Source: an uncultured delta proteobacterium | Lineage (GTDB): Bacteria > Desulfobacterota > Desulfobacteria > Desulfobacterales > JAFDCJ01 | Assembly: GCA_963769935.1 (NCBI GenBank) | Contig: CAVYNY010000032.1 | Coordinates: forward strand, 1 to 64,000 | Direction: 5' to 3' | Length of the DNA stretch: 64,000 nucleotides | Shown here: piece by piece, positions 3,195-24,119 of the stretch | Layout of the letters: each line of letters opens with the position of its first letter | Numbering within the stretch: position 1 is the stretch's first letter | Notes under the pieces: model-generated | What the model was told of the DNA's origin: nothing | Seen by the model: the letters and a program-made list of their open reading frames with translations, nothing else | The model's database searches: none | Program-made: the position numbers and the translations under genes

Positions 3195-3343
3195 TTCAAT
3201 TTTTGTGCCAGGTTTCCAATATTCAGCGTCGCGTCACCCATCATTTTGATTTATAAGAATAATTATTTAAAATAGCATTTGCAGGGCGGTCATTAACTGC
3301 CATATGGAAAGGGTTATATTTAACCACTGGTCATATTTGACCG
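3195..3343 (-). promoter_or_regulatory. sigma54-type promoter with IHF-like site and tandem palindromic UAS (copy 1)
   Basis: Minus strand TGGCAC-AAAAA-TTGA at 3210-3196; AATCAA-containing AT-rich site near 3240-3255; palindromes GGGTTATATTTAACCA (3311-3326) and TGGTCATATTTGACCG (3328-3343). Confidence 0.7.
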
Positions 3344-3411
3344 TTTTTAGGTCTCCTCAAATGTCGTGCCGATGCTATCGAGGTCAGATAGACGCACTCT
3401 CAGAATCTGCG

Positions 3412-4851
3412 TTACCCCTCCGGCTGTGCTACGGAGCCTGAATAAAATACGGTGCACGTTTTACCCTGAAGGAATTTCCACGCATCCTTGAGCGGATTCA
3501 ACACGGAACCGCCAATTGACTCAAAGATGCTTTCCTTCTCGATCTGTGGTTCACGGAAGGGCCCGTGCACTTTCTCGCTGTAAACGGCGCACCCTTGTTT
3601 ATCGAGGGCGGCTACGGTTACATCGACAAACTGCTCGTTGGTGAAGTTCAATCCCCCTGTCATGGCGATTCTTTGTTTTTCTGAGGCAAGGGCCACATCG
3701 CGCGCCTCGGCAATGCCGTTTTTTACCTTCCAGACCGAAACGAGTTTTCTGACGATCCCCTTTCCGCCCTGCGACGCTTCGTAGAGGCGTGCAAAATTGT
3801 AGCTCTTGGTGATTACCGGTCCGATGGGGCCCGCGAGCAAGAAGGCCGCCAAATCCACGAGGTTAAAGTTCCGGCTGCGTTCGTACTTCATGATAAACGC
3901 ATCGATATCGATGCTGGAGAGCATCAGGTTCTCCCCGTTCAAAGAAAGGTTGCCGTTAAGCGATCGCTTCAACTCATCAGCACTCTTGCCAATTGCCGTC
4001 AGGTCCGCGGAAAAGTTGATCGGCCCTTCTATGGTTTTCGGGGGGATTTTCTTGAGGGAGTATAGGTCAAAAAGGTCTTCGATCCTGACCCGATTTAGAT
4101 TATAGATTACCCTGTAATGCGGCGACGGCTCCGTCAGGTCCACATGAATGCTGCCGTTCCCGGTTCCGCCGGAGATGTTCATACTGACCGGGTTGATATC
4201 CAGTATTCCTTTTTCACCCGTGGCGCTCATTGCGAGGTTCATCAGGGTCAAACTATAGATTTTGAGTGTCTTGCATCTGGTATCCCCGGTAAATGAAATG
4301 TCCTTGAATGCTCCCAAGCTGTCCGTCCCGCTCGAGTGAAGGTTTCTAATGCTCAAATCCAAGTCATCGACTTCGATTTTCTCGCCGGATGTTTCATCCG
4401 TATAAACGAGGCTCCCCTGAGAGATGGATATCTTTTTCATGCCAAGAAGTTTTTCCCATGACGTGCGTGCCGGGTTTTCAAAATTAAGCATCCCGTTTTT
4501 GAACCGCGCTATGGAGAAGACCGGCTTGAAAAGCTCGACCTGGACTATCTTGATTTCGAACCTCGCGAGGGGGATGAGCTTCAGTCTTATCCTCATCTTC
4601 TCAATCGTAACGACATCCAATCCCTTGTTCCGCACGTTGACGTCCTTCAGCGATAGACCGAAGCCCGGGAAAAGGGCGATGCCCATCCTGCCTTTGATCC
4701 GGACATCCATTCCCAGAGCAGTAGACGCGGCCGCCTCGATCTGCGGTTTAAAGGCTTTGATATTGAGCAGAAGAGCGAGGATGCCTGCCAAGACAACCAG
4801 CGCGATGACGCCCGTTGTTATGAGCAGAACCTTTTTCTTATGGAGAATCAT
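3412..4851 (-). CDS. AsmA family protein
   Basis: N-terminal TM, then FKPQIEAAASTALG..LFPGFGLSLKDV AsmA-like start and beta-rich C-terminus. Confidence 0.8.
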   Translation of the reverse strand: MILHKKKVLLITTGVIALVVLAGILALLLNIKAFKPQIEAAASTALGMDVRIKGRMGIALFPGFGLSLKDVNVRNKGLDVVTIEKMRIRLKLIPLARFEIKIVQVELFKPVFSIARFKNGMLNFENPARTSWEKLLGMKKISISQGSLVYTDETSGEKIEVDDLDLSIRNLHSSGTDSLGAFKDISFTGDTRCKTLKIYSLTLMNLAMSATGEKGILDINPVSMNISGGTGNGSIHVDLTEPSPHYRVIYNLNRVRIEDLFDLYSLKKIPPKTIEGPINFSADLTAIGKSADELKRSLNGNLSLNGENLMLSSIDIDAFIMKYERSRNFNLVDLAAFLLAGPIGPVITKSYNFARLYEASQGGKGIVRKLVSVWKVKNGIAEARDVALASEKQRIAMTGGLNFTNEQFVDVTVAALDKQGCAVYSEKVHGPFREPQIEKESIFESIGGSVLNPLKDAWKFLQGKTCTVFYSGSVAQPEG

Positions 4852-4854
4852 GTT

Positions 4855-4977
4855 TCAGCTCCTCGGGCTCTTAGCAGGTACTTCTTTCTGTAAACACCTT
4901 TGCCTGTCCCGGCGGAGGTCCAAAGGGTTACACTCGTCATCGAGCTTTTCTTCGTACGCTTTTCTTTTGTCCTTCAT
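4855..4977 (-). pseudogene. Remnant of a small coiled-coil protein (MKDKRKAYEEKLD...)
   Basis: RBS plus an N-terminus resembling 'KRKAYEEKLDAQL' coiled-coil proteins, then divergent sequence. Confidence 0.45.
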
Positions 4978-5013
4978 AAGAGAACCTCCGTGATTGAAAC
5001 GTTTCGCCTTCCA

Positions 5014-5175: not shown

Positions 5176-5183
5176 CCCGTCGC

Positions 5184-5803: not shown

Positions 5804-5831
5804 GGTGTTCCTCCTGTCTTTCATTGGATTG

Positions 5832-7160: not shown

Positions 7161-7176
7161 TGCAAATGGCTTGCCA
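7161..7176 (-). promoter_or_regulatory. Canonical sigma54 -24/-12 element
   Basis: Minus strand TGGCAA-GCCAT-TTGCA, directly upstream of the ABM gene. Confidence 0.6.
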
Positions 7177-7371
7177 CCCAGCGAAAGAAAACCATAAGTG
7201 CTGATTTAACAGGGGGTTAGATTGATAGAAGAGAAAACTAGAGAAGGTTGAAACGATCGGGTTGCCCTCAATATTCGGTGGAGCCTCCATATGTTGAGGG
7301 ATGCGTTGCGGTGAGTCAGCCGGCTTATTAGCTGAATTTTGCACGAACTGGAGGCGTTCAGCATTCAGGTA

Positions 7372-9353
7372 TTAACCTGACTCCTTGGTCCCCGGCCGGA
7401 CGATCCCGAGCTTATGCATTCTCGCTCTCAAGGTGCTCGGGTGGAGGCCCAGGATCGCAGCGGCCCCGTCCTTGCCCTCGATGCGCCATCGGGTTTCGGA
7501 AAGCATTTTAAGAATCTGGCTTCGCTCGGTCTCTTCCAAGGTTCTCATCTTAGATGATAATAGGGGGGGTGAATGTATCCAGTTTGTCCGCCAGATGCAA
7601 GACCGGCCCGGGGCACAAGATGACGGCCCGTTCAATGATGTTTTCCAGCTCCCGGACGTTCCCGGGCCACGGGTAATCCTGCAGCGCTTGCATCGTCTCA
7701 TTCGGAATGGACGTAATCTGTTTGCCCAATTTTTTGGCGAATCGCTCAACCAAGGCCTGGACCAGCAGCGGGATGTCTGCTATCCGCTGCCGCAGCGGAG
7801 GGACAGTGATGGGAAAGACGTTCAGCCGATAGAAAAGGTCCTGCCGAAACCAGCCCTTGCGGACCCCTTCCTCAAGGTCTCGATTGGTCGTCGCCACGAT
7901 CCGCACATCGACTTTGGTGGTATAGGACGAGCCCAGGCGCTCAAACTCGTTATGTTGAATCACCCGCAGGAGCTTGGCCTGGATCTCCAGCGGCAGTTCT
8001 CCGATCTCGTCCAGGCAAAGGGTGGACCCATTGGCGACCTCGAACCGGCCGGCCCGCCGGGTATCGGCCCCGGTAAATGCCCCCTTCTCCCGGCCGAACA
8101 ACTCGCTCTCTATTAAATTGGCCGGCAGGGCCGCACAGTTGACACTAATCAGCGGCCGATCCTTGCGCGGGCTCAGGTTGTGAATGGCGCTGGCGATCAA
8201 CTCCTTGCCCGTTCCGGTCTCACCAAGGACGAGGACCGTTGTGTTCATAGGAGCGACCTGCTCCGCTCGATAGAGAACATACCTGAGACCGTCACTTTGC
8301 CCGATAATATTTTCGAATCCATGTCTCATTTTGTTCTCGTTGCGGAAGTAAAGATTCTCGGTCTCGAGCTGATCTTTCATTGCCTTGATTTCAGAAAGAG
8401 CCCTCCGAAGCTCGACCGTCCGCTCCTCGACCTGCCGTTCGAGATTGTCATGGGCTTTTTGCAGCTTCCCATCCATCTTCTTGCGCTCGGTGATGTCCAC
8501 CATTACGACAATAATGCCGATGGCGCCTTTATGGGTGCTAAATGCGTTGGCCCTCAATAGAAAGGAAATAGGCTCGTTATCCCCATGCTTGGAAGTGACC
8601 TCAACTGCGTGGAGTAACTTGTCTCTCAGGGCAGATAGAAGGACAAAGGGAGTCCCGCCGGGATAGCGGAGGTGAAATGCCTCGTCAAACGACTCAAAGA
8701 TTGGGCTTCTACCGAAGAGCCTATCGGCCGACTGACTTGCACGGATGATGCGGCCCCGGGGGTCGCAAAGAACAACTATTTCCGCAGCGTGTTCGAGGAT
8801 CTGAGTTGTCAGTTTTTCCTCTGCCAACATCGTTTCAGTGCGCTTTTGCTCCGTCAGGTCGGTAACCACCATGCACACCGCGCCGGGCATATCCGTGAGC
8901 TGAAGAGGGCTTGCGGCAAGCAAGACCGGTGCAACATTTTCACCGCCGGTCTGTATGGCCAATTCTGTCTTACTGTTCCCCTTTAACCCCCGCTTAACCA
9001 ATGCCTCAAATAATAGCAAGGTCTGTTGCTGAAATGTATGGGTAGATGGAAGATCCGATAACTTTTTCCAGCGACCCTTTGACGATATCTGCAAAACGCT
9101 GGTTACAAAAAAGGATCGTGCCGTCGGGGGACAGGGTGACGGCCCCCTCGTTCATGGTTTCGACCATGACCCGGTAAGGATGATCGGCGCCCGTTAGGGT
9201 AAAGACCCGATCGCCTTCCGCCGTTGAGACAACCAGGGCATCCGCCTCACCGCCTCGGATAGCGCGCAGAGTTTCCTCGGCTTCCATCATCCGCGACGTG
9301 AGTCCCTGCAACTCATCCAAAAGTTGCCGGTGTGTTCTATCCGATTTGCTCAT
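7372..9353 (-). CDS. PAS-PAS sigma54-dependent enhancer-binding protein (NtrC/FhlA-type AAA+ and HTH); two apparent frameshifts (~9017 and the G7 run at 7563-7569)
   Basis: [63 protein letters not shown]. Spread over three ORFs (9006..9353, 7550..9094, 7372..7749) that join colinearly. Confidence 0.85.
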
Positions 9354-9363
9354 GGGTTCGTGC

Positions 9364-9708
9364 TCATGAATTATTGGCTTTCAGATCAATGCCCACCAGA
9401 AACCTTTCCGTATCCGACATGTCGCCGATGAGCCTGCGCAGCGGCAGGGGGAGCTTCTTGATGAGCGTTGGGGCGGCGATAATCTGCTCTCCCTTGGCCA
9501 GCTTGGGCTGCTGGTAGATGTCTATCACCTCGAGTTCGTAGCGGCCTGCCAGGTGTTTTTTACAGAGTTCCTGGACATTGGCGATGGCACGGGTTGACTT
9601 TGGGGTCATCCCGCTAACATATAGCCGAAGAACGTACTTTGCCGGGTCTCGTCCCGCCGCCTCTTTTTCGAATTCCGCAGTGCTCGTTTCTTTTCTTTTT
9701 CTCTTCAT
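9364..9708 (-). CDS. kaiB: KaiB-like protein (second copy)
   Basis: YVLRLYVSGMTPKSTRAI..YELEVIDIYQQPKLA..QIIAAPTLIKKLPLPLRRLIGDMS. Confidence 0.9.
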   Translation of the reverse strand: MKRKRKETSTAEFEKEAAGRDPAKYVLRLYVSGMTPKSTRAIANVQELCKKHLAGRYELEVIDIYQQPKLAKGEQIIAAPTLIKKLPLPLRRLIGDMSDTERFLVGIDLKANNS

Positions 9709-9763
9709 GGCTGTTAAACCAAAAGTTATAACTCCGGCAGACTTTCCCCTGACTCCTGATTTA

Positions 9764-10096
9764 TCATCCGGAGACAGGACGAATGTCGAGCCCCACCAGC
9801 ACGCGCTCGGTGTTGGCCAGATCTCCGATAATCTTTTTAAGCGGTTCCGGAAGCTTCCTTACCAGGGTCGGTATGGCAATAATCTGGTCCCCTTTGGCAA
9901 GCTGGGGATTCTTTAAAAGGTCGATCACTTCAATGCGGTATTTCCCCGCGAGGTGCTCTTCGCAGATTTTCTTTAAATTAGCAAAGGCCGTAATCGATTT
10001 CGGGGTCTGACCGGCTACATATAGCCGGAGATTCCAGATTTCTTTTGTCGAATCGGTCTTGGCCTTCTTCCTCTTTCCGGCTGAGGCAGCTTTCAT
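9764..10096 (-). CDS. kaiB: Circadian clock protein KaiB
   Basis: [62 protein letters not shown]. Confidence 0.95.
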
Positions 10097-10097
10097 C

Positions 10098-11840
10098 TTA
10101 CTCTCCTTTGCCTTTTCTTTTTCGAGCGCTTCGCCGGACTGTTGAAGGTTCCCCCTTGCGAAGATGCGCCATTTTTAAATGGTCTTCTGCCAGAAGCGCT
10201 TGTCTTTTCCGCTCTTCTTCCGCCATCAAATGCAGCTCTTCAGATTCCGCCTCGAACTCGGCACGGAGGGCTGCGATCTTTGCTTCCAGGGCCTTGCGCT
10301 TGCGCTCCTGCCCGCGCTGCCAGCGCTGCGCCTCCTGCCGGCGTGCCAGCTCGGAGGCCTTTTCCTTGGTTTCCTGGACTGCCCGGGCACTGCCGGTTAA
10401 GGCCTCGCCGGAACCGGTATAGATGTCGATCAGGTCAATGCCCTGGTTGGTGAGCAGGAACTCTTGAATCTGGTTGGAGTGGACCATGCCGCGGGACTTC
10501 AAAATGTAGAGGCCCCGGTTGCGTTCCCCTCTGAGTTCGATATCCCGCAGGAGAAGCCACGTATCGATCAGAGAAGATATCTCTTCACTCGTCCGTTCAA
10601 GGCTGCCTCCAAAATGGGTGAGGTCCGTCAGGAAAGTAGAGATCTCGTTCATCTTCAAATAATCGATCAGGCGCGTTAATATGGATTTGACCGATGATGC
10701 TGTTCCCGCGGCGATCAGGTTGCTGATCGGGTCTACAATGAAAACCCGGGGCTTGAACTCCTCGATCGCCTTGTGGAAGGTGACAAGATGCATCTCAAGG
10801 CCGAAAAGCGAAGGTCGGGCTGATTGAAACTTGAGAAGCCCCTGTTTCACCCACCGGCGGAGATCGATGCCGATGGAGCCCATGTTCCGGATGATCTGTC
10901 TGGGCGATTCCTCGAAGGCAAAATACAGGCAGCGCTCACCGCGCAGGCAGGCGGCGTCGGCAAAGGTGGCCGACAAACTCGTTTTGCCGGTGCCCGCCGT
11001 ACCGGAGACGAGGATGGTGCTGCCCCGGTAGAACCCCTTCCCATCAAGCATGGCATCCAACTTGGGGACGCCCGTGGAGATGCGCTCCGTGGATACGGGG
11101 TAGTCGAGCCCCAGGGAGCTGATCGGCAGGATAGAGACGCCCCTATCGTCTATCAGGAAGGGGTACTCGTCGGAGCCGTGCGATGAGCCGCGGTACTTGA
11201 CAATCCGCAGGCGGCGGGTCGTAATTTGCTCCTCGACGCGGAGGTCGAGGAAGATCACGCAATCGGCCACGTATTCTTCGAGCCCGTAGCGTGTCAGGGT
11301 CTTGTCGCCGCTTTCCCCCGTAACGACGGCCGTCACACCGCGCTCTTTCAACCAGTGAAAAAGCCGGCGAAGCTCTGCCCGAAGGATAGCCGTATTCGAC
11401 AGCCCGGAGAAAAGGGCTTCGATGGTATCTAAGACAACCCGCTTGGCTCCGATGGAATCAATGGCATTGCCCAGGCGGATGAACAATCCCTCCAAATCGT
11501 AATCACCCGTCTCCGCAATCTCGTTGCGCGCGATGTGGACGTGGTCCGTTGCGATGAGACCCCGCGACACCATGTCAGGGAGATCAAAACCAAAGGAGAT
11601 GAAGTTTTGCGCAAGATCCTCCGGCGTCTCCTCGAAAGTCATAATGACCCCGGGTTCGGCGTAATCCATGGCGCCCCGCATGAGAAACTCCATGGCAAAA
11701 AGTGTTTTGCCGGAACCCGCAGTGCCGCAGATCAGGGTCGACCTGCCCCTCGGAAGCCCGCCCTTCGTGATCTCATCGAGCCCCCTGATGCCCGTCGGGC
11801 ATTTTTCGAGAACATCAACAGCCTGTTTTGCCTTAACCAT
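10098..11840 (-). CDS. kaiC: Double-domain KaiC (KaiC2-like) with C-terminal coiled coil
   Basis: Two Walker A motifs ([16 protein letters not shown]), FEE motifs, phosphosite region [12 protein letters not shown], long charged coiled-coil tail; GGAGG RBS before ATG at 11840. Confidence 0.95.
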
Positions 11841-12189
11841 CGCCACCTCCCAGCATCATTACGAATCTGCAGTCATGCCCATAACAGAATCCGGCACTCC
11901 TTTGTTGGTGAATTATCAAAAAATCCATTACCAGACAATAGAAAAAACGCAGGATGTGCCCCGTCCAAAATCACCGGGATATTCAGGGCGTTCAGTAATG
12001 CAGGCTTATCGTCAGCTCCAGGTCTTGCCCGTCATAGCGGAAGCTGGCTGCGGAAAACGAAGGCGCGCCGTGGGCTTCCGGTCGATTGACTCATTCATGA
12101 TCTTGCTCCCGGCTCCAATCTGCATCGCCTGAGCGGGTCGAAGCGGAGCCCAGGGTTACTCCCGCCGGATTTCGCATTATCCCATCCGG

Positions 12190-12470: not shown

Positions 12471-12764
12471 CTATTTTGTCTGAGACTCACCGACGTGTCT
12501 TTTTCCCAACTCCAGAATATTTTCCTTCAATTTCTGGATCTCCTTGTTCATGCTCCTGCCATGAAGGGATTTCTTTGCCAGCTTTGGTAGGGCCAAAACC
12601 GCCACAATTGCTCCACCAATGAGAGATGAATAAAAAATCAGGGCTGTAATAGATAGCTGAAAATTCCAGGTGAAAAACTTGAAATCCAGAGGCATACTGT
12701 TTTGTACAGCGGTGATGATAATTACCAAGAGAAGCAAAAAAGTGATGATTAACGAAAAATACAT
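12471..12764 (-). CDS. LapA (DUF1049) family membrane protein
   Basis: TM-AVQN-x-FFTW-TM-coiled-coil layout. Confidence 0.8.
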   Translation of the reverse strand: MYFSLIITFLLLLVIIITAVQNSMPLDFKFFTWNFQLSITALIFYSSLIGGAIVAVLALPKLAKKSLHGRSMNKEIQKLKENILELGKRHVGESQTK

Positions 12765-12806: not shown

Positions 12807-12954
12807 GTCAAACTCCATGCCAGGTTTGAAAAGTTTAACCATATTGAATTCAATATATTGATTTATCATTGAATTTTTTTTTATAAGGGACCGCCAATGG
12901 AGGAAACTGAACGCAAAATCATGGTTGCATATGACCAATGGTCGTATATGACCA
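12807..12954 (-). promoter_or_regulatory. sigma54-type promoter with IHF site and tandem UAS (copy 2)
   Basis: TGGCAT-GGAGT-TTGA (12822-12808); AATCAA-TATA-TTG IHF consensus near 12851-12863; palindromes at 12922-12937 and 12939-12954. Confidence 0.75.
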
Positions 12955-13164: not shown

Positions 13165-14715
13165 TTATGGCTGGCGGATATCCAGTTTTCGCATGCGGGC
13201 GCGCAGCGTGCTGCGGTCGAGTCCAAGGATTTCTGCAGCCCCGTTTTGGCCGCTTACCTTCCAATGAGCCTGTTCAAGCACCCGGACAATATAATCACGC
13301 TCAACCTCATTCAGTGTTTTTTTTGCGGTCGTTAAATCCTTGGGCGGCTTTTTTAATTCATCCACCAGGTGCAGTTTGGGACCCGAGGAATTGATTACCG
13401 CCCGTTCGAGGACGTTTTCAAGCTCCCTGACATTGCCGGGCCATTGATACTCCTGTAAGGCATTCATAACGCTCACCGGGATGCTTGCAATGTGCTTCCC
13501 CAGTCGCTTGGATATTTTAGCGACGAAAAAATCCACCAGCAGCGCCATGTCTTCCATCCGCTCTCGCAGCGGGGGCACCGTAATCGGAAAAATGTTTAGC
13601 CGGTACCAAAGATCTTCCCGAAACCGGCCCCGGCGGACCTCCTCTTCCAGCTGGCGGTTGGTGGCCGCAATCACCCGCACATCGACTTTGATCGTGCCGG
13701 AGCTGCCCAACCGTTCAAACTCGCCATCCTGGATGACCCTGAGCAGTTTGGGCTGCAGTTCCAGCGGCAGCTCCCCGATCTCATCCAGAAAAAGGGTGGC
13801 GCCGTCGGCCACTTCAAAGCGCCCCAACTGTCTGGCATGGGCACCGGTGAAAGCACCTTTCTCGTGGCCGAACAATTCACTTTCAATGAGGTTGGCGGGC
13901 AGGGTGGCGCAATTCACTTTCACTAAGGCCCGATCTTTACGCAGGCTTAAGTGATGAATGGCCCGGGCCACCAGCTCCTTGCCGGTACCGGTCTCACCGA
14001 GAACCAGAACGGTCGTATCGGTTGGGGCAATTTGTTCAACTTTATAGAATATATAATTGAGCGCGTTACTTTGGCCGATAACGTTTTCATAATTGTAGCG
14101 CGATTTGATTTCTTCCTGCAGATAGGCTCTCTCGGCCTCAAGCCGGTTCTTTAACTCCTTTATTTCGGAAAGAGCGGCCCTAAGATCAAGCTCGGCCTGC
14201 ATGCGCTCGGTAATATCCTGGATAGAACCGGACATCCGGATCGCTTCGCCCTCGCTGTTCCACATTGCCTGGCCGCGTGCGAGAAACCACAGGTACTCGC
14301 CGGATTTTTTCTGCAGGCGGTATTCGACCTTGTATGGTGCACGTTCTTGAAGATGGCGTTCGATCGCGGTCCAGATGGGCTCGGCGTCCTCCGGGTGCAG
14401 TCGGCTGCGGAAAGAATCTATCCGGCCGGGAAACTCCTCGGACGAGTACCCCAGGATTTCCCGGAAACGATCCGAGTAGAAGACGGTGTTCGACAGCAGG
14501 TCCCAGTCCCAGAGGCCGTCGGTCGAGCCTGCCAGGGCCAAAAGATAGCGCTCTTCACTGGTGCGCAAGGACGCTTTCGCCCGGCCGTGTCGCGACCGCT
14601 GTATGAACAGCCGGACGACAAGCAAGGTCACGCCGACACAGAAAAAAACCAGGACGATGATTGCCGTTGGTATAGAGCCCAAAACAACTCCTCTATCGCT
14701 TGCAGCTGTTGTCAA
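13165..14715 (-). CDS. TM-PAS sigma54-dependent enhancer-binding protein, possibly lacking its original N-terminal sensor
   Basis: TM helix, PAS_3 ([24 protein letters not shown]), GAFTGA AAA+ domain, [19 protein letters not shown]. Confidence 0.9.
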
Positions 14716-15216: not shown

Positions 15217-16695
15217 TTAAGCGGTTGCATGCATGCAGTTAAGCAACTCTTTGACTGCAACGGTTGCTATGCCGGAATTGATATCAGACATGGCGTAGGG
15301 AATAACCAACTCGTTGTTATGAATTAGCGCACCGCAGGAATAAACGACATTGGGGACATATCCCTCGCGCTCTTTCTTACGCGGGGCAATCAGCGGCTCA
15401 TCCAGGCGGGCGATTATTTTTGTCGGATTTTCAAGATCAAGCAGTATGGCGCCGATGCAATACTGACGCATGGGCCCGACGCCATGGGTGAGCACAATCC
15501 AGCCTTCATCGGTTTCGAGGGGGGAACCACAGTTGCCGATCTGGATGAATTCCCATGGATATTCAGGCTCCTGGATGATTTGGGATTCTTGCCAGAAATG
15601 GATATTGTCTGAGAACATGATATGATTGTTTTCACCGTCCTGGCGCGAGAGCATGACATAACGATCGCCAATTTTTCGCGGAAAAAGAGCCATGCCCTTG
15701 TTTTGTACGGCTTTGCCGTTGAGCGTTAAGATGTTGAATTTGATAAAATCCTTTGTTTCGATCAGTTGCGGCAAGATGGTACTACCGTTATAGGCGGTAT
15801 AGGTCGCATAATAGGTGACTTCCTGCCGGTTATCGAAAAATTGTACGAACCGGGCATCTTCAATGCCTCTGCTTTCGTTTTTCGAAACGGGAAAGATCAC
15901 CCGTTCGGATATGGGATGATCGGCATGGAAACTCACCTCATAATTGGAATCGGCAAGCCAGCACATAGCCTTGAAGGCTCTGTTTTGGAGCGTTTCAGAA
16001 AATAGCGGTTTTGCGCGCAGGATTCCAATTTTTTCGATTAATTCGTTATAAGTAAAATCTTCCGGCAGCCGGCTGAGAATATGGGCGGTTATCGCATTGC
16101 GGACCCCCATCTCATTCAGCTTGAGCTGGAAAGGATTGCGTTTGTAAATCGGGTCCAGTTGGAGATCCGGCGTTTCCACAAAATCACTGATCGGGTAGAA
16201 ACGGATCGTATTGCTCCGGTCAAGGACACCGCTGCGAAAGACAATTGACGAAACATGGCCTTCGCCGGTTGCCCGCAGGCTCATGATAAAGCGCAGGCTG
16301 CCTTTTTTCTGACGGCTCTGATCAGGATGGGGAACAATGGAAGGGTTAAAGAGGGCGGCCGATTCAATCGAGTACTCCTTTGTAAAATAGGCCCCGATGA
16401 GGGCCCTTTGAACATCGTTGAGCATTGCATCCCGCGGAACATAATCCTTCACCGCATTCAGGTGCCGCTCAAAAATGTGCCCGATATCTTCGTGCCGTCC
16501 GGAAAACTCAACCATTATTTTAGCAATTAAATTTTCGGCTGCCGCATCCGGCAAGCTCATTATGCGCTGAATTATTTTAGGGATGCGATACCTCTTATCG
16601 GGAAGATGAAGCCGGGTGATCACCCGTGAAGTATCCCCTACGATCTTATTGGCTTTTCTCTTAACATTCATCTTTTGACGCTTTTTAGGGTGCAT
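15217..16695 (-). CDS. GH130-family glycosidase/phosphorylase (long form); start may be 16671
   Basis: EYSIESAALFNPSIVPHPDQS, GIEDARFV, NKGMALFPRKI, GNCGSP, REGYVPNVVYSCG. Confidence 0.9.
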   Translation of the reverse strand: MHPKKRQKMNVKRKANKIVGDTSRVITRLHLPDKRYRIPKIIQRIMSLPDAAAENLIAKIMVEFSGRHEDIGHIFERHLNAVKDYVPRDAMLNDVQRALIGAYFTKEYSIESAALFNPSIVPHPDQSRQKKGSLRFIMSLRATGEGHVSSIVFRSGVLDRSNTIRFYPISDFVETPDLQLDPIYKRNPFQLKLNEMGVRNAITAHILSRLPEDFTYNELIEKIGILRAKPLFSETLQNRAFKAMCWLADSNYEVSFHADHPISERVIFPVSKNESRGIEDARFVQFFDNRQEVTYYATYTAYNGSTILPQLIETKDFIKFNILTLNGKAVQNKGMALFPRKIGDRYVMLSRQDGENNHIMFSDNIHFWQESQIIQEPEYPWEFIQIGNCGSPLETDEGWIVLTHGVGPMRQYCIGAILLDLENPTKIIARLDEPLIAPRKKEREGYVPNVVYSCGALIHNNELVIPYAMSDINSGIATVAVKELLNCMHATA

Positions 16696-16909
16696 ATCGC
16701 GGGGTCCTTAATGTCGATTGATACCTGAAACCAATTAGCAAATTTGGCTATGGCACAGCCTGTTTTCTCTGACCTGGCCCTTAGGACCAGGTTTTCGTTT
16801 CTGAATAAATAATTCACTGCATCGCACGTCTCTTCATTATGGCAGATCTTCAATCCCGGCCTGTCCTCGAAGTTGATTTTCCGGTCTGTAATCATCCGGC
16901 CATGCTCAT

Positions 16910-17851
16910 CTACAGCGGCGGCCGGGAGCCCGAGAGGCAGAGCGCCACCAGTTCATCGATGACGGCCGTGCCGGCGCACATGACCGTATCCGCGCCGCCC
17001 CAGTATATTTTCACCGTACCGTCGTCTTCCGGAACAGCGCCGCAGGTAAAGACGACATTGGGCACATAGCCGGTTACCTCCCAAGGATCCTCAGGCTGCA
17101 ATATCCACTGATCGGAAACGCCGATGATATTGGCCGGATCATCAAGGTCATGCAGGGCCGCGCCGAGACGATACACACTTCCGGACATCGTCTTAAAAAC
17201 GCCGTGGTAAATATGAAGCCAGCCCCTGTCGGTTTTAAACGGCGGTGCGCCGGGCCCGATTTTCATTTCATCCCAGTGGTAGGCCACCGGCTTCATAATC
17301 ACCCGGGAATCGCCCCAGTGCACGAGATCGGGAGAATAGGAAATCCAGATCGACCAGGACGAAATTTCGGAATGCGGCCGGTCCAAACGCACATACCGCC
17401 CGCCGAACTTTTCAGGGAAAATGACCACGTTGCGCAGGTCGGCCTGGGTGATCAGCGCAATCCGTTCCACTTTTTCAAAATCCCGGGTGCGCGCCAGGGC
17501 AATCCGCACGCCGTGACGGGAATAGGCGCTATAGGTCAGCAGGTACTGGTTTTCTACCCGGGAAATCCGCAGGTCTTCGACTCCGAACGCTTCGTATTCG
17601 GCAAAAACATTATCCGTTGAAGGTATCAGAAAGGGTCGGGGATGAACCGTAAAGGAAAAACCGTCCTCGCTGTCGGCCCGGCCGATGATGGAGCGCCCGT
17701 TTAGCAGATGCGACCTGAAAAGCATAATGTAGCGGCCGTTGTGTTTGACGATGCCCGCATTGTGAACGGTAGCTACCGGATACGGCACATCCTTGCTTGT
17801 CAGGATGGGGTTTTTTTTAAAACGTGTTATTATGGGATGATGCGTTTTCAT
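16910..17851 (-). CDS. GH130-family glycosidase/phosphorylase
   Basis: NPIL, HNAG, GVEDLRI, KIGPGAPP, GYVPNVVFTCG, YWGGADT. Confidence 0.9.
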   Translation of the reverse strand: MKTHHPIITRFKKNPILTSKDVPYPVATVHNAGIVKHNGRYIMLFRSHLLNGRSIIGRADSEDGFSFTVHPRPFLIPSTDNVFAEYEAFGVEDLRISRVENQYLLTYSAYSRHGVRIALARTRDFEKVERIALITQADLRNVVIFPEKFGGRYVRLDRPHSEISSWSIWISYSPDLVHWGDSRVIMKPVAYHWDEMKIGPGAPPFKTDRGWLHIYHGVFKTMSGSVYRLGAALHDLDDPANIIGVSDQWILQPEDPWEVTGYVPNVVFTCGAVPEDDGTVKIYWGGADTVMCAGTAVIDELVALCLSGSRPPL

Positions 17852-18867
17852 TGAGGTCTGTCCTGTAAAATCATTTCATAGACTTGTATGTATTCATCGA
17901 TCATGCGGTCGACGGTGAAATGCCGTTCAACATGGCGACGGCAGTCGGCGCGGTCGATCTCTTTAATACGTGCAACCGTTTCAATGGCCTCGTCCACGGT
18001 GTTGACCAAAAAACCACTTCGGCCGTTTTCGATAAGTTCCGGCATGCTGCCCCTATCAAAGGCGATCACGGGCGTACCGCAGGCCATGGATTCAATCACG
18101 GACAGACCAAAAGGCTCATCAAACTGGATGGGGTGCAATAGCGCGCAGGCCTTGCCGAGCATCCGGCTGCGCTCAGCGGGTCCGACGCTGCCGGCGTAAA
18201 TCACCTGGCTGTTGTCTATGTGAGGGGCGACATATTGGTCATAGTATGCCTGGTCCTGGATGATGCCCGCCAATATCAGCTTTTTATTGCAGGCCCGGGC
18301 GATGTTCAGGGCTTCGCGGGTCCCTTTATCCCGGTGAATGCGCCCGAAAAAAAGCAGGTGATCGTCCGGGGCAGGCTGAAAATCGAATTGCTGGATATCA
18401 ATGCCGTGATGAATGGTTTTGATATAATCAAGATCCGGCGAACGATCGGCATCGCTGATGGAAACATAGAAAACGCGGCCGTTGTATTTCTTGTAAACCG
18501 GCAGAATCCCGGGCGATGAAAAGCCGTGAATGGTGGTCACAACCGGGGAGGTGGTCAGGCCGGTATAAGTCAGAGGCAGGAAATCAAAATGGTTGTGGAT
18601 CAGGTCGTATGCATCGGCATGTTCGAAGAGCTCTGAAATGTGCAGGCACTCCCAGACTTTTGGTATGAGGGAGCGGTCTTCTTCATAGCCCCGCGGGCAG
18701 ACGGCGTGCAGCGTGCCGCTGGTCCGGGAATCCGCGGTTGCAAACAAGGTAACATCATGACCGCGCGCCACCAGCCCTTCGGTCAACAGTGACGCCACGC
18801 TTTCCCAGGGGCCGTAGTGGCGTGGCGGCGTGCGCCAGGCAATGGGCGAGAGCATCGCGATATGCAC
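17848..18867 (-). CDS. GT4 glycosyltransferase
   Basis: PPRHYGPWE, GHDVTLFA, FGRIHRDKG, EPFGLSVIESMACGTPV. Confidence 0.9.
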   Translation of the reverse strand: MHIAMLSPIAWRTPPRHYGPWESVASLLTEGLVARGHDVTLFATADSRTSGTLHAVCPRGYEEDRSLIPKVWECLHISELFEHADAYDLIHNHFDFLPLTYTGLTTSPVVTTIHGFSSPGILPVYKKYNGRVFYVSISDADRSPDLDYIKTIHHGIDIQQFDFQPAPDDHLLFFGRIHRDKGTREALNIARACNKKLILAGIIQDQAYYDQYVAPHIDNSQVIYAGSVGPAERSRMLGKACALLHPIQFDEPFGLSVIESMACGTPVIAFDRGSMPELIENGRSGFLVNTVDEAIETVARIKEIDRADCRRHVERHFTVDRMIDEYIQVYEMILQDRPQ

Positions 18868-18881
18868 GGCTGATCCTTTAC

Positions 18882-21188
18882 CTAATCGGCTTTCGGGGAC
18901 GATGACTGTTTAAGAACCTCGTCGGCATAAAGCTTTTGCAATGTCATCAGCGAAAGCAGCCAGGCCAGGGACGATTCGGCGCCTTCATTCTGGTTGATGC
19001 CGTCCGCCATCAACCCATCCCGGCAGCCGCCGGTCTTGGGATCATAGAGCGGCATATTCAGGTCGTTGTGTCCTAAAAACCAGTTAAAGCACATGACTGC
19101 ATTCTCAAACCAGGTGTGGTCCCGGGTAACATTAAAAGCTTCGACACAGGCTTCAACCATGGCGTTGGCTTCGACGGGCTGCTGGTCGAAACGGGCTCTG
19201 GGTCCGCCTTTTTCATACCAACCGGTGCTGCCGATGGGCGCAAAGTGATTGTCTTCGGTTTGGATGGCCAGCAGCCACTTGAGGGAATTGAGTCCCATAT
19301 CGATCATATCGTTGCGTTGCATCCGGCGGCCGGACAGCAGCAGAGCCTGGGGCAGTTTGCCGTTGGCATAGTTTAGAGCGTTCTCAAGCCAGGGCCAATC
19401 GTCTGTGGCATTGTTTTTAAACTGATCGAAAAGCCGGTCGGCAAGAACTTCCTGGATCCTGCGCACATCACTGTCACCGGAAAATTTATACAGGTAGGCA
19501 TGCATGCCCACCAGACAAAAAGCGATGGCGCGGGGCGAATGAAAATTCTCGACAGCTCGCAGGGCCTTGTTGAAAAGGGTTGTGCTCATTGCGAGATGCC
19601 CGGGATCGTCAAGAAAAGCCACTGCTTTGCCAAGGCACCAGAGTGCTCTGCCATGCGCATCCTCGGACCCGATCTCCTCCATCCATTGCCGCGAATAGGT
19701 CATGAAATTGCGGAAACGCCCATTTTTTTCATTATAGGCATACAGAAGAAATCCGAGATAATGACCGCTGAGAACATCAAGTCCCCAGCCGTTGGTCGGC
19801 AGGTATTTTTGACCCATGGCGGCGACCAGCAGCGCTCTGGCATTATCATCGGTGCAGTAGCCATGGGTGCGATCGGGAATGGTGTAGTTGGCATGCTGCA
19901 GGATGCCGGTATCATCGGTAAAGGCTTTCAGGTGATCGAGCTTGATCTCCGGGAGCTCGAAATTCGTGATGGCCTTGATGTTTTCAACATAGGAATGCCG
20001 GGGACGGGGGTTGCGGGTGCGGTTTTGCCGCACTTCACTGAAAACCTGGAGGTATTTTCGGGATACCTCTTTCCAGACTGCGTCACGGCTGAAGGTATAG
20101 GCTTTTTTGCGCATAGCGTGCCGTTCGACATCGTTGTCCAAAAGTCCGATAATTTGCTCCGCTAAGGCATCCGGATTGCGGAAGGGTACAATTCGGCCCC
20201 GGCCTTCGGCAAGCATCTCTGTGGCATACCAGTACGGTGTCGAAATGACGGCTTTGCCCGTGCCCATGGCATAGGCAAGGGTTCCGGAGGTAATCTGGGC
20301 TTCTTCCAGATAAGGGGTTACGTAAATATCGGCGATGCCGAGAAACTCACATAACTCCTTTAGTTCAACAAAACGATTTTGAAAAATGACATGCTCGCCG
20401 ATACCGAGTTTGCGCACGAGCTGCTGCAGCATGATTCGGTATGCATCCCCCTGCCACTTTAAAACATGCGGGTGGGTTGCGCCCAGGATAATATAGACCA
20501 CGTCAGGGTGTTTTTTTATAACCGCCGGCAGCGCCTGCAATACATTTTCGATGCCCTTATTTGAGGAAAGCAAGCCGAAGGTGAGCAGCACCTTTTTGCC
20601 TTCCACACCGAACTTGTCTTTGTTGAAGCTTGAATCAATAAACGGCGTATCCGGAATGCCGTGATGGATAAAGGCGATTTTCTCTTCGGGCACGGCATAG
20701 ATATCTTTGAGGAAGTCGGAGGCCTTGCGGCTCATCACCACCAGCTTATCGGACAGATCGGATAGCTTGCACATGACGTCACGATATTCCGGGGCGGGAT
20801 CTTTCAGAATCGTATGCAACGTTGTCACGACCGGCATGCGCAGATCACCCAACAGTTTCAGCAGGTGGCTGCCGGCCGGACCGCCGAAAAGACCGTATTC
20901 ATGCTGCACACAGACAATATCCGTCCGACTGATATTCATATATTGAGATGCGACACTATAATCGGTCAACTTGTTCTGATTGATCTCAAAGCGCACTTTT
21001 TCCGGATAGGGATATCCCTCGGGTTTGTCATTCATGGCTGCCGTCCAGCAGCAAATATCGGGGGCTTCCGCTGATAAGCCTTCAACCAGATCTGTGGTGA
21101 AGGTTGCGATACCGCACTGGCGGGGCAGATAGTTGCCGATTACGGCAACCGAGTCGATTCCCTCATAATACTTAATAACAGATGTCAT
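18882..21188 (-). CDS. GT4 glycosyltransferase fused to a six-hairpin glycosidase-like domain
   Basis: YLPRQCGIATFT, QHEYGLFGG, SGTLAYAMG, then GILQHA..GYCTDDNARAL..FDQQPVEA..NQNEGAES. Confidence 0.9.
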   Translation of the reverse strand: MTSVIKYYEGIDSVAVIGNYLPRQCGIATFTTDLVEGLSAEAPDICCWTAAMNDKPEGYPYPEKVRFEINQNKLTDYSVASQYMNISRTDIVCVQHEYGLFGGPAGSHLLKLLGDLRMPVVTTLHTILKDPAPEYRDVMCKLSDLSDKLVVMSRKASDFLKDIYAVPEEKIAFIHHGIPDTPFIDSSFNKDKFGVEGKKVLLTFGLLSSNKGIENVLQALPAVIKKHPDVVYIILGATHPHVLKWQGDAYRIMLQQLVRKLGIGEHVIFQNRFVELKELCEFLGIADIYVTPYLEEAQITSGTLAYAMGTGKAVISTPYWYATEMLAEGRGRIVPFRNPDALAEQIIGLLDNDVERHAMRKKAYTFSRDAVWKEVSRKYLQVFSEVRQNRTRNPRPRHSYVENIKAITNFELPEIKLDHLKAFTDDTGILQHANYTIPDRTHGYCTDDNARALLVAAMGQKYLPTNGWGLDVLSGHYLGFLLYAYNEKNGRFRNFMTYSRQWMEEIGSEDAHGRALWCLGKAVAFLDDPGHLAMSTTLFNKALRAVENFHSPRAIAFCLVGMHAYLYKFSGDSDVRRIQEVLADRLFDQFKNNATDDWPWLENALNYANGKLPQALLLSGRRMQRNDMIDMGLNSLKWLLAIQTEDNHFAPIGSTGWYEKGGPRARFDQQPVEANAMVEACVEAFNVTRDHTWFENAVMCFNWFLGHNDLNMPLYDPKTGGCRDGLMADGINQNEGAESSLAWLLSLMTLQKLYADEVLKQSSSPKAD

Positions 21189-21212
21189 ACCCGCTGCCTT
21201 TTTGTTCTACGT

Positions 21213-21338
21213 TTATCTTCCATTTGCCCAAATCGATTTCATTTTGTCTTTTTTTTGATTCCGTTTCTCCTTTAGGGTGTTCTTGGCTTTTTTCTGTTCT
21301 TCGCGGTTGCCTTTATCTTTTTTTCCCTTGTCTCCCAT
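21213..21338 (-). CDS. 41-aa basic protein MGDKGKKDKGNREEQKKAKNTLKEKRNQKKDKMKSIWANGR
   Basis: Hand translation; AAGGAG RBS; same strand as the flanking genes; not in the track. Confidence 0.55.
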   Translation of the reverse strand: MGDKGKKDKGNREEQKKAKNTLKEKRNQKKDKMKSIWANGR

Positions 21339-21396
21339 CTGATCTCCTTTTTATGAAAAAAGGTAACCCACAGAGGAGCTACCTTTAACAGCCGAC

Positions 21397-21747
21397 TTAT
21401 TTTTTAACGAGAAGTGCAACCCCATCGGAACACGCTTGAGCGACACCATAGTAAGCCTCTGTTTGCCCGGGCATTTTATTCCAGCCGCCCTTTTCAATGA
21501 ATTTATATCTCTCCCAGCTGTTTACTTTCTCAAATTCGCTGAATTTCTCCGCCTGGTTCGGGTCCTTCATGAATTGGGCGACGCAGATCGCCGCCTGACT
21601 CGCCAAGACGGCCTCTTTGGACATCTTTTCGCTGGTGGCGGCGGTAGACCAGCCCCCCCACGCAAAACCGATGATCATCGCGATGATTGCCCCGCAAATA
21701 AGGCCCCAAGTTCCAAACTTAACTTTTCCCGAAGTTTCCGGTTTCAT
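21397..21747 (-). CDS. Hypothetical membrane-anchored protein
   Basis: GGAGG RBS; TM GAIIAMIIGFAWGGW; Cys pair (AAICVAQF, AQACS). Confidence 0.7.
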   Translation of the reverse strand: MKPETSGKVKFGTWGLICGAIIAMIIGFAWGGWSTAATSEKMSKEAVLASQAAICVAQFMKDPNQAEKFSEFEKVNSWERYKFIEKGGWNKMPGQTEAYYGVAQACSDGVALLVKK

Positions 21748-21917
21748 GGATAATACCTCCCTTGAATGATGTTGTGATATTTTTGTTTGGGATGACCTTG
21801 CGACGTATGCATTGGATCAGGTCATCGGCCTTGGCCGATTTCTGTTGGATAGGAAAGGCTTTTGCACTTTTTTCGGTCAGAACCTCATTTCTGCGAGCGA
21901 TCCGGATGCCGTTCGGT

Positions 21918-23396
21918 TTAAAAAATGTAGAGTTCGCAGATTCTACGGTAATGGTAACCGTATATTGATAGCGTTATTGCCACGGAGATCTGTCTGGGTT
22001 TGCGGATCAGGGTCCAGAGCAGCAGTTGCCAGTAATGAAAACGCTCCTTTCCCAAAACCCCGAGCCGGAAAGCGGATCGAAAGAATGACAGGAAGCGCTG
22101 AATATTTATCGGCTGGTTGATTTCAGGCGCCTTCAGTTCTTTCAGCAGTGTTCTGACCCGCCGGTAATAGTTTTTCGGAGAATAAATCTGTTTCATTATC
22201 GATTGATAGCCGTCCAGAAGCCTGTCGAGGCCCATGCGGGGAATGATATTGGTGGTGCCGTCAACATTATCGCCGGAAAAGGTATTGACAACCCGACTTT
22301 CCCGTTGAAGCCGGTCAAAGAGACGCGTACCCGGAGGGGCCTGGAGCATCCCGACCATTGCGGTTACGATGCCGCTCTTTTGAATGAAATCGATCTGCCG
22401 CTGGAAAATGGAAGGCCTATCGCTGTCGAAGCCCACAATAAAACCGCCCATCACCTGCAACCCGGAACGATGGATAATTGCGACACTTTCAAGGAGGTCG
22501 CGGTTTTTATTCTGGGTTTTATGACATTCGGTGAGGCAGACCTCATCGGGCGACTCGATGCCGATAAAAACGGAATCGAATCCGGCCGTTACCATCATTT
22601 CCAGGAGTTCCGGGTCATCGGCGAGATTAATGGAGGCTTCCGTGAAAAAGACACAGCCTTTTTTACCTTGGCGCCATTCGATCAGGGCGGGCAGTAAATG
22701 CGTTTTAAGGTAATTCTTATTGCCGATAAAATTGTCATCCACAAAAAATATGCTGCCGCGCCAGCCGGAAGCATAAATACGGTCCAGTTCCGAGATGATT
22801 TGCCGAGGTGTTTTTAAGCGCGACCGGTGGCCGAATAAAGCCGTCACATTGCAGAATTCGCAGTTGAACGGGCAGCCTCTGGAAAACTGAATGCTCATGG
22901 ACGCGTATTTTTTAATTTTGACAAGATCCCAGGAGGGAGCCGGGGTATCGCCAAGATTGCAGAACCCAGCAGCCCTGTATACCTTTTGCGGATTTCCCTT
23001 TTGAAAGTCCGACAAAAAAGCCGGCAGTGTAAGCTCCGCTTCGTCGAGCACGAGATGATCCACCTGCTTGAATTCATCGGGCTCAGAAGTAAAAAGCGGC
23101 CCTCCCGCAACGACTTTCAAATTTGAAGCCTTACAACGGGCGATGATTTGTTCGGCCGATTTCCGTTGAACCGCCATGCCCCCGATAAAAGCCATATCCG
23201 CCCATAAAAGGTCTTTCTCCGTAAGGTTGTCCACATTTACGTCTACCAGGCGCTTGGGCCATGCCTCCGGCAACAGGGTCGCAACGGTGAGCAGGCCCAG
23301 CGGCGGGAAGGCCGCTTTCTTGCCGATAAAACTTAGAGCGTATGTAAAAGACCAGAAGGTCTCCGGAAATTTTGGGTAAATCAGGAGAATGTTCAT
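21918..23396 (-). CDS. B12-binding radical SAM protein (DUF4070 type), copy 1
   Basis: PPLGLLTVA, FSRGCPFNCEFC, FFVDDNFIG, GGFIVGFDSD. Confidence 0.92.
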   Translation of the reverse strand: MNILLIYPKFPETFWSFTYALSFIGKKAAFPPLGLLTVATLLPEAWPKRLVDVNVDNLTEKDLLWADMAFIGGMAVQRKSAEQIIARCKASNLKVVAGGPLFTSEPDEFKQVDHLVLDEAELTLPAFLSDFQKGNPQKVYRAAGFCNLGDTPAPSWDLVKIKKYASMSIQFSRGCPFNCEFCNVTALFGHRSRLKTPRQIISELDRIYASGWRGSIFFVDDNFIGNKNYLKTHLLPALIEWRQGKKGCVFFTEASINLADDPELLEMMVTAGFDSVFIGIESPDEVCLTECHKTQNKNRDLLESVAIIHRSGLQVMGGFIVGFDSDRPSIFQRQIDFIQKSGIVTAMVGMLQAPPGTRLFDRLQRESRVVNTFSGDNVDGTTNIIPRMGLDRLLDGYQSIMKQIYSPKNYYRRVRTLLKELKAPEINQPINIQRFLSFFRSAFRLGVLGKERFHYWQLLLWTLIRKPRQISVAITLSIYGYHYRRICELYIF

Positions 23397-23428
23397 ATCT
23401 CGAGACTCCTTTCTGCACATTTAGGGAA

Positions 23429-23758
23429 TTAGGTCTTTTTATCCCTGGCGGCGTTTACAGCCGCCATTCCTTCCGAATCGGAAACCGTGAGGATTTGAAT
23501 GTTCGGGGGTTCGCATAACAGGCTCTTTGTTCCAAGGATAACTCCGAATTTGGCCGACCTTATATGCTGGTCCAGATCTGCGCGGGTTTCCCATTCATCG
23601 ATCAGGCTGAAAACGTTCTCTGCTTCGATATCCCGGAAGACCTGATGGCTCAGACAACCCTTCTCCTTTCCCGTGGACTCAACCATTGAAAGAAGCGTTT
23701 GCATAACCTCTTTCTGCTTTTCGGGAAGTGCATTCATTGCTATCCTGACAAGGATCAC
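23429..23758 (-). CDS. ABM family protein, copy 2
   Basis: EKGCLSHQVF..LIDEWETRADLDQH; AAGGAGG RBS before GTG at 23758. Confidence 0.8.
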   Translation of the reverse strand: MILVRIAMNALPEKQKEVMQTLLSMVESTGKEKGCLSHQVFRDIEAENVFSLIDEWETRADLDQHIRSAKFGVILGTKSLLCEPPNIQILTVSDSEGMAAVNAARDKKT

Positions 23759-23969
23759 GGAAACCCTCCTTTCCACAACCGAATAAGATAGACGGTCTAA
23801 ATCAAACCCAAACCTTTTGCCAAATGTCGCAAAATTTATACAATCTATTGAAAATACAAATTATTATTCCATAGTTCCATTTGGGGCGAAGCCCCTGACT
23901 GGATATAAATTGGCGGCCTCTTTGCCCGGAACCGCATCCAAACAAATTCAAACTGTTCCTAATCACATA

Positions 23970-24119
23970 CTCAAACTTCGTGCCAGATTGGAAAAGTTTA
24001 ACTTTTTTGAACTCAACATATTGATTTATAAATTAATATTTTTATAAAAGCGGCTGAAAGTGGAGAGAGGACTGAACGTAAAATCAGGGTTACATATGAC
24101 CAATGGTCATATATGACCA
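23970..24119 (-). promoter_or_regulatory. sigma54-type promoter with IHF site and tandem UAS (copy 3); part of a ~260-bp diverged duplicate of 12805-13061
   Basis: TGGCAC-GAAGT-TTGA (23985-23971); AATCAA-TATG-TTG; GGGTTACATATGACCA (24087-24102) and the perfect palindrome TGGTCATATATGACCA (24104-24119). Confidence 0.8.

Follow-up and report, generated by a model that had tools for sequence, protein, structure and literature searches.

The window analyzed here is a 64,000-nt stretch from an uncultured delta proteobacterium (assembly GCA_963769935.1, contig CAVYNY010000032.1, positions 1 to 64,000), part of a source genome of 8.0 Mb (G000). On its minus strand lie three sigma54-type promoters, each with an integration host factor (IHF)-type site and a pair of 16-bp palindromes upstream. 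We call this kind of pair type 1 (two TGGTCATATATGACCA palindromes at a 17-bp period) and a second kind in the same window type 2 (two CCTCAATATATTGAGG palindromes at an 18-bp period). Promoters, palindromes, and IHF-type sites had been described in an original prediction made from the sequence alone, and all three sets proved to lie at the positions given there. They are listed below with EBP1, the likely cognate activator gene.

3196..3210 (read 3210-3196), minus strand: sigma54-type promoter 1, TGGCACAAAAATTGA, TGGCAC-AAAAA-TTGA, with GG-N10-GA; start predicted at about 3184 from the standard -24/-12 geometry
3239..3251, minus strand: IHF-type site of promoter 1, AATCAAAATGATG, sequence match with one mismatch
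3311..3343, no strand: type-1 operator pair 1, two imperfect TGGTCATATATGACCA palindromes at a 17-bp period, 16-mers at 3311/3328
12808..12822 (read 12822-12808), minus strand: sigma54-type promoter 2, TGGCATGGAGTTTGA, TGGCAT-GGAGT-TTGA; start predicted at about 12796
12851..12863, minus strand: IHF-type site of promoter 2, AATCAATATATTG, exact sequence match
12922..12954, no strand: type-1 operator pair 2, 16-mers at 12922/12939, 211 nt downstream of EBP1
23971..23985 (read 23985-23971), minus strand: sigma54-type promoter 3, TGGCACGAAGTTTGA, TGGCAC-GAAGT-TTGA; start predicted at about 23959
24014..24026, minus strand: IHF-type site of promoter 3, AATCAATATGTTG, exact sequence match
24087..24119, no strand: type-1 operator pair 3, 16-mers at 24087/24104, the distal site a perfect palindrome
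13165..14715, minus strand: EBP1, likely cognate activator, with a hydrophobic N-terminal helix, PAS_3, a sigma54 AAA+ domain with GAFTGA, and a Fis-type helix-turn-helix (HTH); start codon uncertain

The two 16-mers of each pair deviate from TGGTCATATATGACCA at 4+2, 3+1, and 3+0 positions in pairs 1, 2, and 3, respectively. The distance from the start of the IHF-type 13-mer to TGGC downstream is 41 nt in each of the three promoters; the match is exact in copies 2 and 3, and the near match noted for copy 1 proved to be a single mismatch.

Across the source genome, we found exactly eight type-1 pairs with 3-6 mismatches in total, none with 7-10, and nine with 11; at the other periods tried (15, 16, and 18-22 bp), no pair had fewer than nine mismatches. 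The window accounts for three of the eight; the other five are all on another contig, C38, within its first 23 kb. TGGCAY-N5-TTGA stands 99-101 nt downstream of the pair in 8/8 copies, always with the -12 TTG exactly 10 nt downstream of the -24 GG, and counts of intergenic TGGCAY-Nk-TTGN sites in the genome peak at k=5. The exact IHF 13-mer is present in 5/8 regulon promoters compared with 4/80 other sigma54-like sites, and the genome holds 12 IHF/HU-family genes and one rpoN. The eight copies form about three or four descent groups (non-motif identity of 0.55-0.83 within and 0.28-0.45 between groups). Four contig ends of this genome (the starts of C32 and C38 and the ends of C1 and C36) hold type-1 sites, a type-2 site, and a related activator; because its parts sit at these four ends, the island may be one fragmented piece.

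The pair occurred in 22 of 61 genomes in a set of relatives, and a reversed-pattern control gave no matches in these 61. An exact-match scan of GTDB returned at least 119 stretches; the 80 with listed titles came mostly from Desulfobacterales, Desulfobulbales, and unclassified deltaproteobacteria. Among the matches listed were 131 distinct pairs (125 with enough flank on both sides), of which 98 had a sigma54-type site, TGG[CT]-N7-TT, at 95-105 nt, with a peak at 100 nt (42 matches). A looser GG-N10-G at 94-104 nt was seen in 26 of the remaining 33 pairs, which we did not count, as this search had no chance control. Pooling all loci and keeping promoters with <70% identity over the spacer left 95 dissimilar promoters. 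In these, the operator, an A/T tract, the IHF site, and the -24/-12 boxes are conserved and the rest of the spacer is variable; the IHF 13-mer, allowing two mismatches, sits at offset -41 in 51/95 and at -40 in 19, with at most three at each of nine other offsets. The motifs had been proposed to be selected rather than merely duplicated. Their persistence, with their spacing, in the 95 dissimilar promoters argues for selection, although copies 2 and 3 of the window are themselves duplicates (75-90% identical over ~270 nt).

We scanned five further genomes, complete or in large contigs, for site clustering, activator, and KaiC. In each of them the sites cluster in one 10- to 75-kb stretch, with one outlier in G459, and the pair is rare phylum-wide (6/401 sampled genomes). 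The genome-and-relatives scan with the double palindrome that the original prediction had called for yielded 8 genome pairs and 22/61 positive relatives, with the sites clustered in islands. Judged by its pattern of conservation in sequence, the type-1 unit is a selected, island-local module. A named cultured carrier of the regulon is Desulfosarcina alkanivorans PL12 (L053), with two sites and the activator. In one record titled Treponema sp. (L108), two type-1-like pairs lie next to each other, neither of them with a sigma54 site where one would be expected; these may be due to chance, may be another protein's site, or may reflect a binning issue.

The type-1 operator is likely read by EBP1, the recognition helix of which contains RSTLRAR; a paralogue, 88% identical, lies at C38:21387-22922. 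Among the matches listed, ~50 type-1 loci hold an EBP1 relative, in most cases immediately upstream of the pair; one unrelated activator (L065) and one type-2 HTH fragment (L080) turned up as well. All 48 matched HTH words from type-1 loci read [DNE]RSTLRAR, and all 16 from type-2 loci read [HN][PAS]STLR[AF]R (overlapping loci were not removed from these counts). With a threshold of 70 bits, set after the scores were viewed, HTH matches were found in 18 genomes of the relatives set, all pair-positive, and in 0/39 pair-negative genomes. In the five further genomes, an RSTLRAR activator lies inside the site cluster every time. The 95 promoters and the islands with one activator each thus support the claimed local regulon, in which sigma54 promoters carry a selected operator recognised by one of the island's activators.

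The window encodes a second activator, EBP2 (7372-9353, linked to the Kai genes described below), and the two had been described as having very similar HTHs. Both do end in STLRARM, but the two preceding residues differ. In a quick tree, from which the window's own EBP2 was left out because it is frameshifted, EBP1-type and EBP2-type activators formed separate clades (SH-aLRT 96 and 100) within one larger clade. A search of solved structures with the HTH gave weak Fis/NtrC4 matches (E 0.03-0.8), which put the R/P difference between the clades at the position of R in Fis NRGTLR, a residue that we take to be base-reading. Sister activators in two other loci, L160 (G020:C2) and L149 (G015:C382), carry NASTLRFR and NPSTLRGR; behind them lie different tandem palindromes, AT-centred, with sigma54-like sites, which may point to a wider HTH-operator code.

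These distributions also bear on a different account of the palindromes, namely that they are operators of another protein, such as a repressor or nucleoid protein, or relics of a duplicated leader, with the promoters partly dead. Several copies are clear duplicates, and the island shows decay in the form of frameshifts, a transposase, and a truncated leader remnant near 30435. However, promoters whose spacer sequences have diverged retain motif and spacing, and the pair tracks one activator clade just as the sister palindrome tracks the sister clade. We regard this account as very improbable.

The -12 element departs from the sigma54 consensus in the way that had been pointed out: all three window promoters, and indeed all eight genome copies, have GA instead of GC, but GA is not obligatory. 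Among the 95 dissimilar type-1 promoters, the dinucleotide is GA in 65, GC in 22, GT in 5, and GG in 3, and the named loci divide along lineage lines (Desulfobacterales, 18 GA and 1 GC; Desulfobulbales, 8 GA, 11 GC, and 2 GT). Intergenic TGGCAY-N5-TTGN sites in the source genome end in C 60 times, A 28 times, T 12 times, and G 4 times, against a wrong-spacer background of ~6 each; outside the regulon, they comprise 60 GC and 20 GA sites, ~54 and ~13 above background. Because ~13 GA sites exist outside the regulon, GA is a tolerated second class in this genome. In type-1 promoters, GA is a strong bias and no strict rule. We file these promoters as a variant of the strict GG-N10-GC consensus, because C at -12 is absent in most copies (A in 8/8 genome copies; C in 22/95 homologous promoters). 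The idea that GA relaxes the need for A/T at the next base found no support (A/T in 55/65 GA and 19/22 GC promoters), and a second, specialised sigma54 for GA promoters was rejected, there being one rpoN only.

Most likely, GA would be a -12 variant tolerated in the lineage that became the norm of the regulon by descent, with possible mild selection for a weaker, activator-dependent promoter. GA could also be a selected specificity device, the EBP1 clade working best with it or being insulated by it, such that ~60 other activators of the genome are barred from the island; this concerns the role of GA alone and is compatible with the overall explanation given below. The uniform GA of the genome's type-1 promoters, set against the 60 GC and 20 GA of its other sites, speaks for such a device, as do its three type-2 sites, all GC, and the contrast across genomes (type 1, GA in 65/95; type 2, GC in 30/32). 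Yet 22/95 type-1 promoters have GC despite the same operator and spacing, the GA/GC split tracks lineage, and types 1 and 2 occur mostly in different lineages. Moreover, the genome's eight GA copies are not eight independent events, because they descend from about three or four ancestors, and the single rpoN leaves no specialised sigma54 paralogue. We consider a specificity role for GA possible but lean against it.

To characterize the targets, we assigned the first genes of 75 type-1 promoters to families at a cut-off of 1e-6. ABM (15), BON (7), B12 radical SAM (4), GT4 (3), and KhpA (2) recurred, and 11 families appeared once: Band 7, PRC, DUF5670, DUF3309, GroEL, DsrD, PagL, Lar, histidine kinase, transposase, and an EBP1-type activator. 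CsbD-like, Band 7, and KhpA-like genes also recur among the targets (CsbD-like first genes in other genomes were identified visually and through blast matches with the CsbD of the window). The stress markers BON, CsbD, DUF5670, PRC, and Band 7 are thus found among the targets. RpoS, SigB, and EcfG regulons typically contain genes for BON/OsmY, CsbD, DUF5670/lmo0937, YtxH, PRC-barrel, and Band 7 proteins, and we take the type-1 target set to resemble these general stress regulons. Models for RpoS and SigB gave no match over cut-off in the source genome (no search for EcfG-type factors was made), and the promoters of the set are of sigma54 type, in contrast to the dedicated sigma70-family factor of a general stress response.

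Some single targets merit record. In one genome, dsrD, encoding a dissimilatory sulfite reduction regulator, lies directly behind a type-1 promoter (L082:3501-3740). groEL is the first target in L064 (2283-3782), and the source genome has a groEL copy in the C38 island (16587-18221, opposite strand). Genes for B12/radical-SAM DUF4070 proteins stand within 4 kb of a type-1 pair in 19/80 loci versus 1/19 type-2 regions; paralogues lie at 21918-23420 and 25478-26959 in the window and at C38:7726-9204.

Together, these results lead us to conclude, with a probability of roughly 0.8, that the three elements are copies of a conserved palindrome-pair/IHF/GG-N10-GA module, likely an EBP1-read sigma54 enhancer-promoter that would switch on a general-stress-type island. 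Two activator dimers would bind the paired TGGTCATATATGACCA sites at about -159 to -126, with IHF bending the intervening DNA (about -67 to -55), and the AAA+ ring would then contact sigma54-RNA polymerase at -24/-12 and open the promoter; the fixed spacing of 95-105 nt would hold the sites in helical phase. The N-terminal sensors of EBP1 orthologues range from a membrane helix with PAS_3 through PAS_4 alone and PAS-PAS_3 to a long form containing PocR. Because the sensor is swapped while AAA+, HTH, and operator are conserved, the inducing cue probably varies and is likely PAS-sensed. The sequences directly display the motifs with their spacing and conservation, the linkage of the genes, and the two operator/HTH classes; from these we infer that the sites are bound and bent by IHF, where transcription starts, that it depends on sigma54 and responds to stress, and what GA does.

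Several observations weigh against this conclusion. Four of the 22 pair-positive relatives (G004, G009, G024, and G045) have no strong activator match; three of these four are fragmented assemblies, and in G024 part of an HTH lies next to a site. The co-occurrence counts overstate the association, because kin genomes are not independent. The stress label rests on gene families, and 33/75 first genes have no family at 1e-6; it is weakened further by the simple rule with which first genes were chosen, which gave some wrong frames. In the window, the CsbD, BON, and DUF5670 genes sit behind the type-2 promoter, not a type-1 promoter. The base after GA is C in copy 2 and G in copy 3, a feature shared by 10/65 GA promoters. 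According to PMC10083551, C or G just downstream of the GC motif of the Aquifex dhsU promoter gave no robust transcription in vitro, although 14% of E. coli promoters have C or G there. Because these bases were non-permissive in that system, copies 2 and 3 may be weak promoters.

The genes behind the three promoters are as follows.

3002..3088, minus strand: 28-aa hydrophobic open reading frame (ORF) with a GGAGG ribosome site, first gene behind promoter 1; no Pfam family
2951-2934: terminator-like hairpin between the 28-aa ORF and the ytxH, DUF948-like, and AI-2E genes (2815-1335)
12471..12764, minus strand: LapA-domain small membrane protein, first gene behind promoter 2, followed by a 625-nt gap and then kaiC
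15217..23776, minus strand: genes behind promoter 3, namely ABM, B12/radical-SAM DUF4070, a 116-aa membrane protein, two GT4 glycosyltransferases, and two GH130; presumably co-transcribed

A scan of 1000-15300 for sigma70 promoters and terminators was at chance level (11 vs. 11.3 and 23 vs. 17.4), so the hairpin at 2951 is weak evidence. The same scan gave no clear terminator in the lapA-kaiC gap apart from a weak match at 11963. Contigs of relatives from public runs (best share 0.49), which cannot show starts or levels, included one RNA contig over 12520-12757, an overlap without evidential weight. The gap also holds a 212-nt duplicate (91%) of the end of a REC gene (12190-12401 vs. 6262-6473), a sign of recent island shuffling. 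Farther along the window, at 30390-30483, is a remnant of a type-1 leader with an A/T tract and an IHF-like site but no operator or promoter; it is fused to 36 nt copied from a THIVI_2564-family gene (5833-5868) and lies upstream of a cheB/cheR-PAS gene. At 33089-34015, an MtrA-like domain (methanogen methyltransferase subunit A) is fused to DUF4346, in a bacterium.

Between the two activator genes lies a Kai module, and EBP2 is followed by an operator and promoter of its own.

9364..11846, minus strand: kaiC-kaiB-kaiB, behind promoter 2 and directly upstream of EBP2
7372..9353, minus strand: EBP2, PAS-PAS-AAA+-HTH, with two frameshifts (near 9016 and 7575); of a clade other than EBP1
7266..7299, no strand: type-2 operator pair with an 18-bp period and consensus CCTCAATATATTGAGG; EBP2 is its likely reader; outside the original prediction
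7162..7176, minus strand: sigma54-type promoter with canonical GC, TGGCAA-GCCAT-TTGC (TGGCAAGCCATTTGC), 89 nt from the type-2 pair

Behind this type-2 promoter stand genes for ABM, REC, DUF5670, a THIVI_2564-family protein, CsbD, BON, and AsmA. Contigs of close relatives are without one base near 9016 and at 7575, so the EBP2 frameshifts look strain- or assembly-specific. The type-2 pair occurs in 31 of the 401 genomes of the phylum-wide sample and three times in the source genome (window, C1:164977, and C9:82328). Of 34 type-2 sites examined, 32 had a promoter at 89-99 nt, with GC in 30 of these (not counting nine weak matches that fell within the activator gene, at 112-114 nt), and the activator clade with HPSTLRAR goes with this operator family and its GC promoters. 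The window's type-2 copy may be damaged, because its spacing is 89 nt and not the usual 96-99. The type-2 -24 box is mostly TGGCAG or TGGCAA, not TGGCAC/T, so that the two sister regulons deviate from consensus in different boxes. The ABM start codon at type-2 promoters comes 27-29 nt after the T of TGGC, at about +2 to +4, which suggests leaderless mRNAs; this short distance was seen at window position 7148 and in L172, L174, L177, L182, L184-L186, L190, L191, L193, L195, and L197.

The original prediction saw transcription from the type-1 promoters as the plausible output of the Kai module, via EBP2 or via a Kai-controlled EBP1. The position of kaiC-kaiB-kaiB between both activators in the window is in keeping with this proposal, as are the STLRARM ending and the larger clade that the two share and the similar genes driven by the two regulons. 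But EBP2 is followed by its own operator and GC promoter, both here and in other genomes: intact kaiCBB-EBP2-operator runs were found in G432 and G197 (2/19 other type-2 regions fetched) in addition to the frameshifted run of the window. None of the 30 other type-2 genomes in the 401-genome sample has the type-1 pair at one mismatch or fewer. KaiC (E<=1e-60) was present in 2/21 other type-1 relatives, far from the sites, and in four genomes without the pair, and it was found in 0/5 of the further type-1 genomes. One of 80 loci (L083) has kaiC no more than 4 kb from a type-1 pair, and there the promoter points into kaiC, as promoter 2 likewise points to kaiC in the window across lapA and the 625-nt gap. 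Linkage of the regulator to kaiC/kaiB was thus found for the type-2 activator alone. The proposal is not supported by these counts, and we consider it highly unlikely in either form. Since EBP2 adjoins its own operator and type-1 loci are mostly without KaiC, the output of Kai, if any, would be the type-2 regulon, and Kai may instead be a type-1 target. Taken as a whole, the original interpretation is partly supported.

A broader reading would join the two regulons. Desulfobacterales and their kin may run a general stress response through sigma54 and sister activators with interchangeable sensors and matched helix, operator, and core-promoter codes (RSTLRAR with TGGTCA and -12 GA; PSTLRAR with CCTCAA, -12 GC, and a relaxed -24 flank). 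In the source genome, EBP1 would then activate kaiCBB-EBP2, leading to a Kai-gated second stress wave, and the -12 base would help to select the activator. We offer this as speculation and think it unlikely in full.

The EBP1-read type-1 module would define a regulon, from activator, operator, IHF site, and promoter to targets, by which sediment sulfate reducers and their relatives that have no RpoS or SigB could survive stress. It also supplies a natural set of dozens of sigma54-type promoters in which A takes the place of a -12 C that is conserved as a rule. Such promoters would escape scans that look for GC, and the GA/GC set allows a direct test of the role of the -12 base. The sister operator/HTH pair would make a clean two-residue test of a recognition code, and the type-2 operator corrects where Kai output should be sought.

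In its layout, the type-1 module belongs to the classical sigma54 enhancers, as described for NtrC/glnAp2, NifA/nifH, and NorR/norV with IHF looping in PMC4987338 and PMC7962754. It shares with them the GG-N10-G core, palindromes ~80-150 bp upstream, an IHF-type site between, and, beside rpoN, a linked activator with GAFTGA and a Fis-type HTH. What sets it apart is its own operator, made of two 16-bp sites that repeat every 17 bp and lie at an almost constant 95-105 nt from the promoter, together with stress-type targets and, in most copies, A in place of C at -12. The enhancer-IHF-sigma54 architecture is therefore classical; neither of the two operators, nor the pairing of operator and activator, nor the regulon was found described in the literature searched, which lay outside most subscription papers and RegPrecise-type databases and may miss older GA promoters.

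The best NCBIfam match of EBP1 is FhlA (414.7 bits, far under the family cut-off of 830). FhlA of E. coli and Salmonella takes input through GAF domains, EBP1 through PAS. Both have a 16-bp palindrome, but the type-1 operator differs from the FhlA site CATTTCGTACGAAATG (given in a table of PMC4987338), and 0/75 first genes were hyc, hyp, or fdhF. In the same phylum, Desulfovibrio vulgaris DVU2894 has the site yGTCA-N6-TGACr according to PMC4641369, which gives a promoter consensus of tTGCt and lists several stress-related enhancer-binding protein regulons. The GTCA half-site resembles that of type 1, but type 1 has GTCA-N4-TGAC, with a 4-nt rather than a 6-nt center as in DVU2894/FlrA-like sites, and is paired; the type-1 motif strings were not found in a search of that paper's text and supplements.

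Natural -12 variation has a precedent in the two RpoN promoter classes of Bradyrhizobium japonicum, which differ at -12 (PMC3162934); two RpoN copies exist there and one in the source genome. As for Kai, Pseudomonas KaiC-histidine kinase modules tie KaiC to stress resistance, and KaiC there binds the N-terminal PAS of the next gene's product, as reported in bioRxiv 10.1101/2022.01.26.477890. EBP2 is similarly a Kai-adjacent PAS protein, but here a sigma54 activator with a type-2 operator. Finally, the RpoS, SigB, and EcfG regulons are alike in their typical member genes, found here among the targets or in the island, and unlike in that the island here, patchily distributed, would be controlled by sigma54 with a one-component activator.

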